From contig NC_014408.1 in NCBI RefSeq assembly GCF_000145295.1, positions 1,350,001-1,382,000 on the forward strand: a stretch of DNA of 32,000 nucleotides, read 5' to 3'. This stretch comes from Methanothermobacter marburgensis str. Marburg (GTDB lineage Archaea > Methanobacteriota > Methanobacteria > Methanobacteriales > Methanothermobacteraceae). Every line of letters starts with the position of its first letter. Position 1 is the stretch's first letter. Under the pieces are notes generated by a model that was given only the letters and a program-made list of their open reading frames with translations, did not search any database and was not told where the DNA came from. The position numbers were made by a program, and so were the translations under genes. This document shows positions 7,237 through 31,229 of the stretch, in pieces.

Positions 7237-7330
7237 AGTAAAAATCCCAATTTGGTCTGATTTCAAGAAATAATTGCAGAAACGACGTGATTGTACTTGT
7301 ATTTTCAATCCCAATTTGGTCTGATTTTAC
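7237..7330 (-). CRISPR. Orphan mini-CRISPR: 2 repeats (30 nt) and 1 spacer (34 nt), no cas genes in window
   Basis: Repeat 7301-7330 is attttcaatcccaatttggtctgattttac. Repeat 7237-7266 is agtaaaaatcccaatttggtctgatttcaa, with an identical 20-nt core atcccaatttggtctgattt and degenerate ends. The spacer is 7267-7300. On the minus strand the intact repeat ends in GATTGAAAAT, like the archaeal ATTGAAA-type 5'-handle. It resembles the 30-nt repeat I recall from Methanothermobacter arrays (from memory, unverified). An AT-rich leader-like stretch at 7331-7437 lies on the side of the intact repeat. Confidence 0.65.
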
Positions 7331-7587
7331 TTTAATACAATATGTAACTATAGTCTTATATATTTATTGAACTGACATGTTAAGTTAATGACCCGCATAA
7401 AAAACTTATAAAAGATTTTTTTCAGAGTAATAAATGAAAACTCAGGTTAACCGAGACGTTCTCACACCATCTACAGAAAGATTTTCCACCCAACCCCTCT
7501 TTCATTATAAACCTTCTTGAACGGTCTGTCTCCAGGTTTAAGATTGTTCTTGAAGAACTATTCCAGACAGGCCCCATCCACAGGGAA

Positions 7588-8619
7588 ATGCGCTCCAGGA
7601 GAGATTACCATGGTTCAAGGCTCTACACTGGCTCATCACTGAATCTATCACCCTACAGGATCTACATTAAAAGCTGGCATGACCATGAAACCATACTCAA
7701 CAGGATGATATCCCAGACAGCATATTACCTTATGTGCGCAGCTGAACTTGTGGGTGGAATGGTTGATGGTGAAAGGTCTGAATTATGCCAGACTCTCTTC
7801 AGATCAGCGGCTGGAATCATGGACAGGTACCATCTCTGGGCCTTTTTCACCATCGATATTCTTGAGGAATCAAAGATCCTTGAACGACTAATATCAGAGG
7901 GAAACAGGCTTTACAATGAAATTTACAGCATCTTCCGGATGATAAGGGACACTGTTATTTACCTCAACCTCATCCACCCTCTGCAGGGGGATGGAGTGGA
8001 GATGCCCCTTCAGGAATTTTACAGTATATATGAACTCTGGGCGATCTCAAGAATATGGGATAAATTCCGCCAGATGGGATTTCATATTAAATCTGTTGAA
8101 AAGGCGCTTTCACATCTTCCATCATCGAAAATATCCATCAGGATGGAAAGGGGCAATGAAAGTGCCACGATAATATGGGAAGTGAAGCTAAATGCAATTG
8201 AACACTCAACCTACTATGGTGACCTCCTGCAGGCTCTCGGAGGAGGTGGAAGTGTTATAAAACCCGATATAACCGTTCTCTATGAATCTGAAGGTCATAA
8301 GAGGGCTCTGGTGGGGGATGTTAAGTTTTCAGTTACAGATACCGGACTTCCCCGACTTGAATCCATCTATAAAGTTCTCAGTTATGTGGAGGATCTCAGA
8401 AAATCCCCCCTGTTCAGAGGATGGGATCTTGAGGGGCTCCTGGTATACCCTGGAATGGTGAGCCCAGTTAGCGTTCCCTCCTCACTCGTTGCATACCAAT
8501 TTATACTATCGATTATACTAATGGTGAGCCCAGTTAGCGTTCCCTCCTCACAGAGTGGCAGCCATATCCATGTTTTTCCGCTTAACACATCAAACAGGGA
8601 ATTTGGGGTATTTGGTTAA
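7588..8619 (+). CDS. PD-(D/E)xK nuclease-fold protein (McrC/DUF2357-like guess), probably 5'-truncated and carrying an in-frame 66-bp insertion
   Basis: 343-aa ORF. The nuclease-like core is VIKPDITVLYES...ALVGDVKFS (D...D-x-K). The same frame stays open without any ATG/GTG/TTG back to a TGA at 7435-7437, reading ...LLERSVSRFKIVLEELFQTGPIHRE before M1. MVSPVSVPSS is duplicated 22 codons apart. Confidence 0.55.
   Translation: MRSRRDYHGSRLYTGSSLNLSPYRIYIKSWHDHETILNRMISQTAYYLMCAAELVGGMVDGERSELCQTLFRSAAGIMDRYHLWAFFTIDILEESKILERLISEGNRLYNEIYSIFRMIRDTVIYLNLIHPLQGDGVEMPLQEFYSIYELWAISRIWDKFRQMGFHIKSVEKALSHLPSSKISIRMERGNESATIIWEVKLNAIEHSTYYGDLLQALGGGGSVIKPDITVLYESEGHKRALVGDVKFSVTDTGLPRLESIYKVLSYVEDLRKSPLFRGWDLEGLLVYPGMVSPVSVPSSLVAYQFILSIILMVSPVSVPSSQSGSHIHVFPLNTSNREFGVFG
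8454..8551. repeat. Perfect 32-bp direct repeat flanking a 34-bp AT-rich insert (period 66 bp) inside a CDS
   Basis: aatggtgagcccagttagcgttccctcctcac occurs at 8454-8485 and 8520-8551. The insert 8486-8519 is tcgttgcataccaatttatactatcgattatact. The structure can equally be read as a 30-bp duplication plus a 36-bp insert. Confidence 0.95.
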
Positions 8620-9384
8620 TTACATTAAACTCTGCTCCTTCCTGTTGAAGAGGAAGGCCGCTGCAAGGACGGCTATAACTGCAAAAACCGATATCACTGC
8701 AATGTTAACCTCAAGTGGAAGCACCGAATTTCTCAGTATTGTGAACCTGAGGGCGTCTACTGCATAGGTCAGTGGGTTTATATAGACCGCGCCCTGAAGC
8801 CAGGCAGGGAGTCCGGTTATTGGGAAGAGAGCCCCACTCAGGAGGAATATTGGGAGCACTATGAAGCTCATTATGAGGTTGAACCCCTCCATGCTGTCTG
8901 TGAAGGCCGCTATCATGAGGCCCAGGCCGCCGAGACCCATGGATATTATGAGGGCTATCACCATGCTAACAGCGAAGCAGATGGGGGACATTGTAACTCC
9001 CACTATGAATGATAGGACAAGGAGGATGACCGCCTGTATCATCGAGGCAGTGCTTATCCCCAGCGCCTTCCCGATCACTATTGAGGGCCTTGATATGGGT
9101 GCAACCAGTATCTCCTTCAGGAACCCATACTGGCGGTCTATTATCACAGAGACCCCTGAGAATATGCTGGTGAAGAGTATTGTCTGACCTATTATACCCG
9201 GATAGATGAAGGCCCTGTAGCCCCCGGCCACTGCGCCGAACCTCACAGCAGCCCCCAGACCTGTGCCGAATATTATGAGCCAGAGGAGGGGGGTTACCAC
9301 AGATGTGACTATCCTTGAACGGTAACGAAAGAAACGCTTCATCTCACGCAGCCATATTGTATATATGCCCTCAAGTTCCGCCAT
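8620..9384 (-). CDS. ABC-2 type exporter permease
   Basis: Polytopic membrane protein (ORF 8620..9399). I prefer the ATG at 9384 (MAELEGIYTIWLREMKRFFR), which is preceded by AGGTGAGG. It lies 23 nt downstream of the ATPase gene. Confidence 0.85.
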   Translation of the reverse strand: MAELEGIYTIWLREMKRFFRYRSRIVTSVVTPLLWLIIFGTGLGAAVRFGAVAGGYRAFIYPGIIGQTILFTSIFSGVSVIIDRQYGFLKEILVAPISRPSIVIGKALGISTASMIQAVILLVLSFIVGVTMSPICFAVSMVIALIISMGLGGLGLMIAAFTDSMEGFNLIMSFIVLPIFLLSGALFPITGLPAWLQGAVYINPLTYAVDALRFTILRNSVLPLEVNIAVISVFAVIAVLAAAFLFNRKEQSLM

Positions 9385-12182: not shown

Positions 12183-14171
12183 ATGGAGAATGCAATCAGG
12201 AGGATCAATGACCTCATTGATGAGAGGAGAGAGGAGGATACCCTATCACTCATCAGGGGTATGGAAGCAGGGGACCATATCTGCATCATATACGATGATG
12301 AGGCTGAGTGGAGGAGGATCATTGTTCCCTTCATCATCGAGGGCCTCAGGAGGGATGAGAGGTGCATATACATAGCCAGCCAGAGGACATGCGAAACCAT
12401 CAGGGAGGAGCTCGGCAGGAAGATCCCTGTTTCCATGTTTGAAGCCGGAGGGAGCCTCAGGATAATGAATGAAACTGAGGCTTACACAGAGGGGGGTTTC
12501 TTTGACCCTGAAAGGATGCTTGACCTCCTTGAATCCGAAACAGAAAATGCGGTTGCCGAGGGCTTCACTGGCCTCAGGGTTACCGGTGAAATGAGCTGGG
12601 TCCTCAGGGGCCTCCCCGGGAGCGAAAGGCTGATAGAGTATGAGGCCAGACTCAACAATTTCTTCCCGGGATCTGACTGCCTTGCCATCTGCCAGTACCA
12701 CAGGCAACTCTTCAGCCCCGATGTGATCAGGGGAGTCCTGCTCACCCACCCCATAGTTGTCTGGAACTCAGGTGTGTACAGAAACCCATACTATATAAGC
12801 CCGGAGCTTATCCTCAGCGGTGAAGAATGTGAGAGGGAGGTGGATAACTGGCTCGAGAATATAAAAAGGGAGAATGAACTTTTAAGGTCCCTTGAAAACA
12901 TCAAAAAGCTCTATGATGAGTTCATAAACCACAGTCCATGGATAGTGTTCCTCAAGGATTTCAGGTCAAGGTACGTGATTGCAAACAGCAGGTTTTCAGA
13001 GCTTGTGGGAACAGAGGATATCACCGGAAAGACCGACTTTGATCTGATGGACAGAGAGGCCGCTGAGGCCTGCCTTGAGTCCGACAGGATTGCCCTGAGG
13101 GACGGTGAATCCTACACTGAGGAGGAAGTTAAGGGCAGGGTCTACGGGGTATACAAATTTGGTTTTAAGCTGCCCGATGGTAGAAGGGGTGTCGGTGGCT
13201 TTGCAGTTGATATAACACAGAGAAAGGTGTATGAGCGGGACATTGAAACCTCGAGGAACAACTTCTTGGGTATCGTTGAGAACAGCCCGGAGCCCATGGT
13301 GATAGTGGATCTGGATGGCAAACTCCTCTACTCAAACCCTGCTGGCAGAAAGTTCTTTGGCTGGCCCCCCGATTACAGGGGTGGGCACATCGGAGTACCC
13401 CTCAGGAGGGAGATACCGGAGATCAGGGTCCTTTCTGCTGACGGCCAGGTGCGGGTGGCTGAGATGATGGTGACAGACACTGTCTGGGAGGGCAGAAAAT
13501 CCCTCCTTATCAGACTCCATGATATAACCAGGCTCCGTGAATATGAGATTTCCCTGAAGAGGTCCCTCAGGGAGAAGGAGGTGATGCTCAGGGAGATACA
13601 TCACAGGGTCAAAAACAACCTCCAGATAATATCCAGCCTCCTTAACCTCCAGAGATGCTCTATCCAGGATGAGAGGGCTGCCGACGTATTCACCGATAGT
13701 GTTAACCGTGTCAAGTCCATGGCCATGATACATGAGAAACTGTACCAGTCAGAGAGCCTTGCTGACCTACCATTCTCAGAGTACATAATTGACCTCGTAT
13801 CTGAGATAAGGTCAAATTATCCTGAAAAAAGGATATCGGTTAATTACGATATGGAGGACATTCACCTGGATATAAACAGGGCCATACCGGCAGGTTTAAT
13901 AGTCAACGAGGCCGTCACCAACTCCATGAAGCATGCGTTCAAATCAGGTGAAGGTGAACTCATCATACGCCTATTTTCGAGGGAGGGCATGGTCCATGTG
14001 GAGGTTGAGGATGACGGACCCGGTCTTCCAGCGGACTTTGATACAGATACCAGCGGCGGCCTTGGCATGGATCTTATGAGGAACCTTGCATCGCAGCTCG
14101 ATGGTGAACTCAGAATCAGGGGGGATGATGGCGTGCGGGTGAGCCTTGTTTTCCCGGCACAGAAAAACTGA
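12183..14171 (+). CDS. Sensor histidine kinase: MEDS domain + PAS domains + HisKA_2/HATPase_c
   Basis: The ORF runs 12174..14171. I prefer the ATG at 12183, 5 nt after GAGGTG. The N-terminus has the MEDS-like GDHICIIYDDEAEWRRIIVPFIIEGL. There are PAS-like segments in the middle. The H-box is EIHHRVKNNLQIISSLLNLQ, and ATP-lid motifs are NEAVTNSMKHAF and DDGPGLP...GGLGM. Confidence 0.9.
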   Translation: MENAIRRINDLIDERREEDTLSLIRGMEAGDHICIIYDDEAEWRRIIVPFIIEGLRRDERCIYIASQRTCETIREELGRKIPVSMFEAGGSLRIMNETEAYTEGGFFDPERMLDLLESETENAVAEGFTGLRVTGEMSWVLRGLPGSERLIEYEARLNNFFPGSDCLAICQYHRQLFSPDVIRGVLLTHPIVVWNSGVYRNPYYISPELILSGEECEREVDNWLENIKRENELLRSLENIKKLYDEFINHSPWIVFLKDFRSRYVIANSRFSELVGTEDITGKTDFDLMDREAAEACLESDRIALRDGESYTEEEVKGRVYGVYKFGFKLPDGRRGVGGFAVDITQRKVYERDIETSRNNFLGIVENSPEPMVIVDLDGKLLYSNPAGRKFFGWPPDYRGGHIGVPLRREIPEIRVLSADGQVRVAEMMVTDTVWEGRKSLLIRLHDITRLREYEISLKRSLREKEVMLREIHHRVKNNLQIISSLLNLQRCSIQDERAADVFTDSVNRVKSMAMIHEKLYQSESLADLPFSEYIIDLVSEIRSNYPEKRISVNYDMEDIHLDINRAIPAGLIVNEAVTNSMKHAFKSGEGELIIRLFSREGMVHVEVEDDGPGLPADFDTDTSGGLGMDLMRNLASQLDGELRIRGDDGVRVSLVFPAQKN

Positions 14172-14244
14172 ATGTTAAACTATTGCATTGTCCAAAAACC
14201 CAATTAAGTGACGATTTTCCCGGCACAGAAAAACTGAATGTTAA
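14149..14244. repeat. Perfect 30-bp direct repeat flanking a 36-bp AT-rich insert (period 66 bp), duplicating the histidine kinase stop region
   Basis: ttttcccggcacagaaaaactgaatgttaa occurs at 14149-14178 and 14215-14244. The flanking bases differ on both sides. The insert 14179-14214 is actattgcattgtccaaaaacccaattaagtgacga. Copy 1 contains the last 7 codons plus the TGA at 14169-14171. Confidence 0.97.
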
Positions 14245-14783
14245 GGAGAGGTAATGTCCTGAAGATCGACGTTGATGTTCACACCAGGACCATCATCTCC
14301 TGTGAATGTGACCTCATCCCATGACCATGAGGACGTTGACGTGTACACCAAAAAAACCATTAAATCGGACCTCCCGGTGATCCTCCAGCGGCTGTCAGTG
14401 TTGTGGCCGGGATCCCTGATGTCCCTCAATACTGTTTCTTGCCGGCGGACTTCTTCTGGCGAGTGGTTTCATGCCGACCAATTAAAGAGGGGCGGCATAT
14501 GGTTGTAAGTAAGTCTGTTTTCATCTATCTTTTACCTTCTCCATTAAGAACCTTCAGTGCTGCTTAGCCGGTACCACGTCTCTTATGGTTGTCACCATGC
14601 CCTATCATGTGCGTACCTTTCATGGAGGGTTGATCCGTGGACCAGGAACCCCTGACGTCCTGGAATGAAGAGCTGGTCCCGGAAAAATCCCCTTGAAACT
14701 CCACAGGGCACTTCACCGAACTATTCCCTGCTCTGGAAAATGATAAATAAGCCGGTTTACATATTAATTAGCCGGTGAGGTGC

Positions 14784-20814: not shown

Positions 20815-21921
20815 GTGTTTCAATTGGATAAGATAAAGATTGCAATAGTCGGTGTGGGAAACTGTGCCAGCTCCCTGATTCAGGGGATATACTATTACCG
20901 TAACAAGGATGCCCGTGATTCAATAGGACTCATGCACTGGGATATTGGGGGTTACAGGCCAGGGGACATTGAGGTTGTGGCGGCCTTCGATGTGGATAAA
21001 AGAAAGGTCGGGAAAGACGTGAGTGAGGCCATATTTGCACCCCCAAACTGCACGACTGTATTCTGTGATGATATACCCGAGATGGGTGTTGAGGTATCCA
21101 TGGGGCACGTCCTTGATGGTGTGGCGCCCCACATGAAGAATTACCCTGAAGATCAGACCTTCGTTGTGGCAGACGCCGAACCCGTTGATGTTGTGGAGGT
21201 CCTCAGGGAAAGCGGGGCTGAGATACTACTCAACTATCTACCCGTGGGATCAGAGGAGGCTGCAAGGTTCTATGCTGACTGCGCCCTCGAGGCCGGGGTC
21301 GCCTACATAAACAACATGCCTGTCTTCATAGCCAGTGACCCTAAATGGGCCGCCAGATTTGAGGACAGAGGGATACCAATTGTTGGTGATGATATAAAGG
21401 CCCAGCTTGGAGCCACCATAACCCACAGAACCCTCGCAAATCTCTTCAAAAAGAGGGGTGTCAGGCTTGATCGGACCTACCAGATAAACACCGGTGGGAA
21501 CACGGACTTCCTCAACATGCTCAACCGTGACAGGCTTGACTCAAAGAAGGAATCCAAGACTGAAGCAGTTCAGTCAATACTGGGTGAGGAACGGCTGGAT
21601 GAGGAGAACATCCACATAGGCCCCAGCGACTACATACCCTGGCAGAAGGACAATAAGATCTGCTTCCTCAGGATGGAGGGCAGGCTCTTCGGGGATGTAC
21701 CCATGAACCTTGAGCTGAGGCTGAGTGTTGAGGACTCACCCAACTCTGCTGGATGCGTCATCGACGCCATAAGGTGCTGCAAACTCGCCATTGACCGTGG
21801 CGTGGGCGGAACACTTACATCAATATCAGCCTATACCATGAAACATCCGCCGGTGCAGTACACAGATGATGTTGCCGCCGGTATGGTGGATGAGTTCATT
21901 GAGGGTAAAAGAGAGAGATAA
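20815..21921 (+). CDS. myo-Inositol-1-phosphate synthase (archaeal type)
   Basis: 368 aa with the NAD-binding N-terminus [20 protein letters not shown], plus [10 protein letters not shown] and SPNSAG motifs. The start is GTG at 20815 or TTG at 20824. Confidence 0.9.
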
Positions 21922-22015
21922 CCCAATAATCTCAATTTCTGGATGGATCCAGAAAAAATCCTCAATCAAACTATTTTTATAAAAGGTTTATAAAAAGGAG
22001 TTATCTGGCTGAGGA

Positions 22016-30627: not shown

Positions 30628-31134
30628 TCAATCGTGGACTGACCTTCCGCCGGCTGCCGCCACTATACCAGGTATCCCCTCAACCCTGAGCTCAAATATG
30701 GCCTCCATACCCTCCTCCTCGAATGCCGCGATTCTCCTTGATTTAATGCGGCTTGTGAGGAGTGCTGCAACAGGTGGTGTTACAATGAAAACCGCCCCAG
30801 CATCACCGAGTGCCCTGACGGTTTCATCCTTAAGTTTTCCCTTACCTATATGGACCAGCACCCCCCTTGATGCCAGGTAGGGCATGCTCTCCTCTATGTC
30901 CTCCTTGTTGCTGCTTGTGGGGGCTATCCCCGCCTGACTTACGGCCGTGTGCATTATCGCAGCACCCCTCACATCAAATGGCTCCTCACCCCTCTTAAGG
31001 GCATCCACAAGTTTAGGGAGCGCGGCATCCCTTCCAGTGTATATGATGCCATCTATGATAACACGGTCCCCGGGGCTGAGCCCCCCAAGTTCACCTCTGG
31101 TTGTGGGTGTAGATATCCTCATAATTACCACCAT
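30628..31134 (-). CDS. Class I fumarate hydratase / tartrate dehydratase beta subunit
   Basis: 168 aa. GIIYTGRDAALPKL, HIGKGK and AIFELRVEG fit the Fe-S hydrolyase beta-subunit pattern. Confidence 0.85.
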   Translation of the reverse strand: MVVIMRISTPTTRGELGGLSPGDRVIIDGIIYTGRDAALPKLVDALKRGEEPFDVRGAAIMHTAVSQAGIAPTSSNKEDIEESMPYLASRGVLVHIGKGKLKDETVRALGDAGAVFIVTPPVAALLTSRIKSRRIAAFEEEGMEAIFELRVEGIPGIVAAAGGRSVHD

Positions 31135-31180
31135 CCAGGATCCATTCTTTAACCAGCTGCAGATATCCTCATAATTACCA
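31111..31180. repeat. 20-bp perfect direct repeat (50-bp period) duplicating the fumarase-beta translation start region
   Basis: agatatcctcataattacca occurs at 31111-31130 and 31161-31180. Flanking similarity continues imperfectly (ccatccaggatcc versus tcaggaatcc). Confidence 0.9.
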
Positions 31181-31229
31181 TCAGGAATCCGCTTTAAGTT
31201 TCAGATCTTCAAGATCTGGTTTTAAATTC

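Follow-up and report, generated by a model that had tools for sequence, protein, structure and literature searches.

Which process can place 66 additional base pairs in a coding sequence in such a way that perfect copies of a target sequence stand on both sides of a short, unique and AT-rich insert? This question is raised by a locus in Methanothermobacter marburgensis str. Marburg, of which we analyzed a stretch of 32,000 nucleotides (NC_014408.1, positions 1,350,001 to 1,382,000 of the forward strand), termed the window in the following and numbered from its first letter. The element in question, site 1, is located close to the 3' end of a gene with an open reading frame (ORF) at 7588-8619 and consists of three parts:

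8454..8485, unstranded: left copy of the target, 32 bp, present as a single copy in the empty-site loci L001 and L086
8486..8519, unstranded: 34-nt insert, unique and AT-rich (34-36 nt, depending on the choice of boundary), read as an ectopic spacer
8520..8551, unstranded: right copy of the target, 32 bp

L-numbers such as these designate retrieved related loci or contigs, which amount to 1.6 Mb in total. We consider it highly probable that site 1 originated from off-target spacer integration by Cas1-Cas2 of a type I-B CRISPR system, with a target duplication of the length of a CRISPR repeat. From sequence comparison we infer both the nature of the enzyme as Cas1-Cas2 and that of the insert as a captured prespacer.

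The two target copies (AATGGTGAGCCCAGTTAGCGTTCCCTCCTCAC at 8454-8485 and 8520-8551) are 100% identical and follow each other with a period of 66 bp, while the sequence beyond them diverges at once on both sides. They are separated by the 34-nt sequence TCGTTGCATACCAATTTATACTATCGATTATACT, the GC content of which (0.29) compares with values of 0.45 for the host gene and 0.47 for the window. According to our own arithmetic, the chance of encountering a perfect pair of 32-mers at most 100 bp apart within 32 kb is in the range of 1e-13, so that the pair at 66-bp spacing is not a product of chance. The event contributes exactly 22 extra codons without introducing a stop and doubles the peptide MVSPVSVPSS. 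Repeat coordinates, GC content and the ORF at 7588-8619 thereby bear out an earlier note on this DNA, in which a perfect 32-bp direct repeat around unique AT-rich 34 bp and 22 in-frame codons duplicating this very peptide had been described. Up to 2 nt of the repeat may be derived from the insert, and the stagger of the underlying event possibly amounted to 30-32 bp.

With regard to the direction of the change, comparison with related strains identifies site 1 as a derived insertion. In L001 (SRR6318356), which is 99% identical to the window, the 32-mer is present once and the insert is absent. The same applies to L086 (SRR21993108), where the single 32-mer carries a private G-to-C change. The search for empty sites, suggested in the earlier note as a check on the claim of an insertion, thus yielded a single copy without insert in both cases. 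The insertion allele, for its part, is present in three independent assemblies, i.e., the complete 1,634,705-bp genome CP069376.1 (GCA_027555065.1), which is 100% identical to the window over 20,361 bases, and the metagenome assemblies L083 (ERZ925063) and L090 (ERZ925061), both from biogas fermenters. L083 and L086 have five single-nucleotide polymorphisms (SNPs) in common at 8310-8443, yet their insertion state is opposite. As judged from this pattern of nearby SNPs, flanking haplotypes are common to insertion-bearing and empty alleles, which points to one of two situations: either the population recombines and the insertion segregates in it, or recombination between the repeat copies has secondarily removed the insertion.

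The appropriate yardstick for the dimensions of site 1 is the CRISPR-Cas system of the lineage itself. Next to this locus, the sister strains L082, L092 and L097 carry a type I-B operon of the order cas6-cas8b-cas7-cas5-cas3-cas4-cas1-cas2. In the insertion-bearing L083, cas6-cas8-cas7-cas5-cas3 are found with the start of cas6 about 4 kb from the site, the stretch examined ending at cas3. L097 and L098 additionally carry a type III-A module, and the canonical array, built from the 30-nt repeat GTTAAAATCAGACCAAAATGGGATTGAAAT, is situated downstream in these two loci. It contains 16 spacers of 34-40 nt (median 36-37 nt), resulting in a unit period of 64-70 bp (mostly 65-67 bp), and the GC content of the spacers ranges from 0.12 to 0.54 (mean 0.37), an interval that includes the value for the site-1 insert. 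When measured against this array, the observed duplication of 32 bp (30-32 bp with the boundary ambiguity) compares with a repeat of 30 nt, and the insert of 34-36 nt falls within the range of the canonical spacers. Site 1 (30-32 + 34-36 = 66) as well as a second site in the window described below (site 2; 30 + 36 = 66) therefore match the size of a canonical CRISPR unit, and in their AT-rich composition the two inserts likewise agree with the canonical spacers. The agreement with CRISPR repeat and spacer sizes, for which the earlier note had relied on a CRISPR remnant in the vicinity, now rests on the canonical array of the lineage.

Two further features of the related cas loci are recorded here. 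The sequence following cas2 in L092 and L093 was considered as a leader and rejected, as it corresponds to the start of cas10. In L097 (18178-18352) and L098 (16744-16918), the 29-nt motif AACTKTGGTGCTTTAATTGTTTTAATGTC occurs three times, with spacings of 65 and 81 bp, between csm6 and the canonical leader.

The operons found in synteny in L082, L092 and L097, together with the type I-B operon beside the gene in L083, argue for the presence of Cas1-Cas2 in the lineage at the time of the event. In the proposed mechanism, a Cas1-Cas2 integrase loaded with a prespacer of about 34-36 bp would carry out two strand-transfer attacks on opposite strands, about 30-32 bp apart and inside the 3' end of the gene, instead of attacking both ends of the CRISPR repeat nearest to the leader. 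Gap filling of both single-stranded target segments would then duplicate the target and give rise to a target-spacer-target arrangement whose period equals that of a CRISPR unit. Since the flanking 'repeats' are unrelated to the CRISPR repeat, processing by Cas6 is not expected, and the unit would be inert for immunity.

Site 1 is not the only unit with this geometry. Two more are located in the window:

14149..14244, unstranded: site 2, with repeat copies at 14149-14178 and 14215-14244 and a unique 36-nt insert at 14179-14214; empty site in L002
30421..30580, unstranded: site 3, of the form A-S-A-S-A, with three copies of a 30-bp unit A and two identical 35-nt inserts S, between the convergent genes upp and fumarate hydratase beta

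Site 2 is characterized by a pair of perfect 30-nt repeats and straddles the stop codon of a gene for a MEDS/PAS histidine kinase. The kinase protein is unchanged, because the first repeat copy holds the stop codon. A scan of contigs with the histidine kinase revealed a clean empty site in L002, a Methanothermobacter metagenome-assembled genome (MAG) from Kamchatka with about 96% identity. In the earlier note, this locus had been singled out as a companion of the same size class, a notion with which the perfect 30-bp repeat and the 36-nt insert are in full agreement. A 50-bp segment of the window at 14437-14486 (TCTTGCCGGCGG...CCAATTAAA) is also absent from L002; it has no flanking duplication.

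Site 3 has a GC-rich insert (0.60). It recurs as A-S-A with SNPs in a more distant Kamchatka MAG (L102:5797-5891), and the element is absent from L108 (strain KEPCO 2); owing to the divergence of its flanks, L108 offers no exact empty site, and none was found for site 3 in this lineage. Site 3 is an older event, the unit of which was later duplicated in tandem. The intergenic region between upp and fumarate hydratase also varies in the M. wolfeii lineage, where L110 contains no unit, L111-L113 contain one and L109 contains two. These units, about 67 bp in size, have repeats that measure about 29-30 bp and are imperfect, and inserts of 37-39 nt that differ. The region could be a hot-spot with stepwise growth, or loss, of arrays, with the reservation that the repeats are imperfect and that no alignment is shared between the two lineages. 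Close by, at 31108-31183 of the window, a 26-nt repeat with 92% identity and a period of 50 overlaps the start of fumarate hydratase beta; its geometry is unlike that of the CRISPR-like units.

In the wider set of sequences, site 4 (29 + 38) is present in two Methanothermobacter genomes (L100:628-724 and L102:407-503) and belongs to a region that is absent from the window. A MAG of the Methanobacteriaceae (L029) features units of 29 + 36 (1901-1994) and 29 + 39 (2784-2880) at a distance of 900 bp, and L009:13206-13292 constitutes a weaker candidate with 24 + 39. Exact direct repeats of at least 21 nt that lie within 400 bp of each other in the window all exhibit a period of 64-66 bp. When exact repeats of 28-33 nt at short range are counted over the 1.6 Mb, six distinct events have a gap of 34-39 nt, against only two clear others with gaps of 22 and 12 nt. 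The inserts of the different sites are unrelated to each other and have no local template.

Among the alternatives, an accident of replication or repair survives best, even though we regard it as improbable. Such an accident could have involved slippage or microhomology-mediated template switching, with a junction that was filled from elsewhere or without a template. Tandem duplication as such is documented in this group of genomes, on the one hand by L002:13263-13392, a plain 65-bp intergenic duplication that is represented by one copy in the window (21920-21984) and does not have the target-insert-target structure, and on the other hand by the later duplication of the site-3 unit itself. What slippage does not account for is the origin of the 34-nt insert of site 1, which has no counterpart in the ancestral, i.e., empty, sequence. 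No other copy of it was found in the window with up to 3 mismatches, and none in the 1.6 Mb of related loci with up to 7 mismatches beyond the same allele in L083, L084 and L090. The insert is therefore not a copy of adjacent sequence, a possibility that the earlier note had raised against its own interpretation. Slippage also leaves unexplained why duplications of 29-32 bp together with unique inserts of 34-39 nt recur in independent events at different loci and in different genomes, in each case with the dimensions of the lineage's CRISPR unit.

A footprint left by a mobile element appears marginally less probable still. Here, a casposon-like element, an integrase-borne element or a miniature inverted-repeat transposable element (MITE) would have created a target or attachment-site (att) duplication of about 30 bp and subsequently lost nearly all of its interior. 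Duplication of a target site around foreign DNA is indeed a hallmark of transposition, and casposases are homologues of Cas1. However, the known target duplications of casposons comprise about 14-15 bp and those of insertion sequences (IS) mostly 2-14 bp. In addition, the inserts share no sequence, lack terminal inverted repeats and measure just 34-39 nt, independent internal deletions would each have to leave a remnant of spacer length, and neither a transposase nor a casposase gene was seen in the window. The absence of the insert from the empty allele, its lack of a template and the unrelatedness of the inserts among sites are consequently in line with the earlier note, which had argued against slippage, IS and MITEs.

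An ancient internal repeat of the protein, or an in-frame insertion selected for the peptide it encodes, is very unlikely. The insertion is in frame and free of stops, and the gene in L083 is still an intact ORF of 513 amino acids. The homologues of the host protein, on the other hand, refute an ancient protein repeat, an explanation that the earlier note had named as one that would refute its claim: the 22 residues are absent from 6/6 of them, over a range from 99% down to 37% identity. Moreover, the insertion is polymorphic among near-identical strains, it resides in a C-terminal tail that is modeled with low confidence, the gene is truncated in the window genome and site 2 lies outside coding sequence. 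Finally, an assembly artefact can practically be dismissed: the repeat does perturb assembly, as the short-read Logan contigs L085, L087 and L089 terminate exactly at it, presumably because a 32-bp repeat breaks short-k assembly, but one complete genome and two metagenome assemblies independently show the identical structure, and contigs span the empty allele as well.

Off-target integration by Cas1-Cas2, the explanation that we prefer, has to be weighed against a number of observations that do not favor it. The duplication at site 1 encompasses 32 bp and not 30 bp, which calls either for a coincidence of 2 nt at the spacer end (about 1/16) or for a slightly longer stagger. In the window genome, this locus has no cas operon. 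When taken alone, the target is not significantly repeat-like, as it agrees with the canonical repeat in 12/30 positions in the best orientation and register (P=0.29), and no leader-like sequence is evident beside the ectopic sites. Furthermore, neither protospacers nor array copies of the ectopic inserts were detected when IMG/VR was scanned with exact and half-length patterns, metagenomes gave no match in two scans whose patterns excluded the ectopic allele, and BLAST searches for phage or plasmid sequences were negative for the inserts singly as well as pooled. The failure to find protospacers carries little weight, because in a control with the canonical L097 spacers a phage match was obtained for just 1/16 (Methanobacterium virus PhiF1, 28/28).

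Considered collectively, the duplicated targets appear closer to the canonical repeat than random segments do. In a Monte Carlo analysis, in which the null was given equal freedom of orientation and register, the joint P value was 0.003 for the six sites and 0.03 for the four from Methanothermobacter. The block TGG.ATTG from the 3' part of the repeat is found in register at sites 3 and 4; it was picked post hoc and is only suggestive. With its low repeat match and without a leader-like flank, site 1 does not qualify as a bona fide CRISPR array. It shares with the canonical Methanothermobacter array the period (64-70 bp), the length of the spacer (34-40 nt) and its richness in AT, and differs from it as a leaderless, single and intragenic unit that should not yield CRISPR RNA (crRNA). 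A search of Rfam returned no family in the window.

A CRISPR remnant is located upstream of the host gene:

7237..7330, minus strand: CRISPR mini-array with two repeats, repeat 1 being a variant of the canonical repeat
7331..7427, minus strand: AT-rich putative leader of the mini-array, deduced from position and repeat orientation only

With a period of 64, the mini-array comprises repeat 1 (GTAAAATCAGACCAAATTGGGATTGAAAAT, 7301-7330), closely related to the canonical GTTAAAATCAGACCAAAATGGGATTGAAAT, a spacer of 34 nt (7267-7300) and repeat 2 (7237-7266), which is degenerate. The putative leader abuts the breakpoint at which homology to the host gene begins. It is unlike the leader in L097, which suggests that the mini-array stems from a different array or leader type. 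The earlier note had regarded this CRISPR remnant about 1.1 kb upstream of site 1 as pertinent to the insertion. Its proximity turns out to be of secondary relevance only, because L083 combines the insertion with a full-length gene and has other genes and the cas operon in place of the remnant.

The spacer of the mini-array is identical in 29/34 positions to codons 31-41 of cas6 (YNYNHVVSAII; 10/11 amino acids) from the sister type I-B operon. The matching protospacers are located at L082:11989, L083:15951 and L092:2036 and are preceded by CCT, in accordance with the published protospacer adjacent motif (PAM) of M. thermautotrophicus, 5'-CCN. The possibility that the mini-array represents a cas6 pseudogene in situ was rejected, as the match to cas6 is limited to the 34-nt spacer; apart from this spacer, the window contains no further sequence of the cas operon. 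The layout of the window is collinear with an arrangement array-leader-[cas operon ... host gene 5' part] from which the bracketed portion was deleted. Taken together, spacer identity and gene order suggest that self-targeting of cas6 was followed by deletion of the cas operon, i.e., an autoimmunity-driven loss. In cas6 itself, the first 12 nt of the canonical repeat (GTTAAAATCAGA) recur within the 5' coding region (L082:11954, L083:15916 and L092:2001), at a distance of 35 nt upstream of the protospacer, which may be due to chance (expected count about 0.05 per locus).

The gene that carries site 1 is itself incomplete in the window:

7428..8619, plus strand: remnant of the host gene, 3' two-thirds of a 491-amino-acid protein of unknown function, delimited by homology to L001 and L083

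Its open frame at 7588-8619 encodes 343 amino acids. The 5' third of the gene, about 176 codons, is lacking, the stretch homologous to L001 and L083 starts at 7428 and a frameshift precedes the ATG at 7588. The full-length gene encodes 491 amino acids in L001 and, with the insertion, 513 (491 + 22) in L083, and all four combinations of truncation and insertion state are found among the strains. The closest matches to the host protein stem from Methanothermobacter. Sequence searches against Pfam and PADLOC and a profile search against PDB gave no match, a Foldseek search with its fold gave none that was significant, the AlphaFold model is of low confidence, and a scan of genome contigs with the protein was likewise without a match. 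None of these resources provided anything usable in support of the label 'nuclease-like' given to the protein in the earlier note. In the AlphaFold model, of low overall confidence, the insertion directly follows the last predicted strand and falls in the C-terminal tail, where residues 453-491 have a predicted local distance difference test score (pLDDT) below 50. The insertion is probably tolerated because it is in frame and affects a poorly ordered tail, and the site-1 unit is most likely a neutral scar.

The gene content of the window indicates a methanogen and includes, besides housekeeping genes, KaiC, the MEDS/PAS histidine kinase and a type I restriction-modification system. At the position where the window has the mini-array and the type I restriction-modification system, sister strains contain EVE, McrB-like and cas genes. 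Relative to all eight other strains, the gene for an ABC-2 permease at 8615-9361 shows about 25 differences (about 3%), in contrast to the near-identity of the neighboring host gene, and this tract is probably recombinant.

Off-target integration of spacers is not without precedent. In E. coli, it has been observed in vivo to generate repeat-length duplications and neo-CRISPR units (Nivala, Shipman & Church, 2018, Nat Microbiol 3:310). That work used a type I-E system with over-expressed Cas1-Cas2 and supplied oligonucleotides, and the evidence for natural events, from two other species, has been described as circumstantial. The sites described here resemble the events in E. coli in the combination of a spacer-length insert with a repeat-length duplication of a non-CRISPR target outside of arrays, and differ from them in that they are natural, belong to an archaeal type I-B context, have empty sites in sister strains in several cases and include one in-frame case in a coding sequence.

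A second precedent is provided by Cas1-Cas2 from the archaeon P. furiosus, which has a 30-bp repeat and for which integration in vitro has been reported at paired, repeat-like non-CRISPR sites on opposite strands, separated by 30-31 bp (PMC6698737). The duplications of 29-32 bp found here and the targets, which collectively appear repeat-like, correspond to this behavior. On the other hand, the P. furiosus experiments used plasmids in vitro, with products that are not fixed in a genome, and the preference for G/C at the borders is not obvious in our six sites (PMC6698737). In CRISPR1 and CRISPR3 of S. thermophilus, acquisition away from the leader-proximal repeat has also been termed ectopic; such events are reported to target genuine internal CRISPR repeats, in contrast to the unrelated chromosomal DNA that is affected here (PMC7999890, PMC5338259). 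Our literature search retrieved no report of natural off-array integration published after Nivala et al. (2018), and 'ectopic' otherwise referred to internal repeats of real arrays. Site 1 and at least one sibling with an empty site of its own are probably clean natural examples of the known off-target integration in an archaeon.

Rather tentatively, natural populations of Methanothermobacter and Methanobacteriaceae may frequently undergo off-target integration to this day, and many of the resulting scars, polymorphic among strains, would lie at repeat-like sites in the surroundings of the cas locus. Under this more doubtful proposition, the units between upp and fumarate hydratase that seem to have accumulated in two lineages (from A-S-A to A-S-A-S-A, and in the M. 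wolfeii series with 0, 1 and 2 units) would be arrays in the process of being born, and the same adaptation activity would have captured the cas6 spacer that drove the loss of the cas operon.

Off-target integration has been proposed as a route to new CRISPR arrays and also constitutes a hidden mutational cost of the adaptation module. The evidence has so far come mainly from over-expression in E. coli and from work in vitro, with natural cases being scarce and circumstantial. The insertion described here is polymorphic among bioreactor strains and belongs to a lineage with known repeat, spacer length and PAM, and the set of natural off-target sites can be used for testing recognition by Cas1-Cas2. 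A perfect duplication of 29-32 bp around a unique insert of 34-40 bp provides a signature for searches, which could reveal genome-wide how often such events occur, how often they seed arrays and how often they alter proteins, as is the case for the 22 in-frame residues at site 1.

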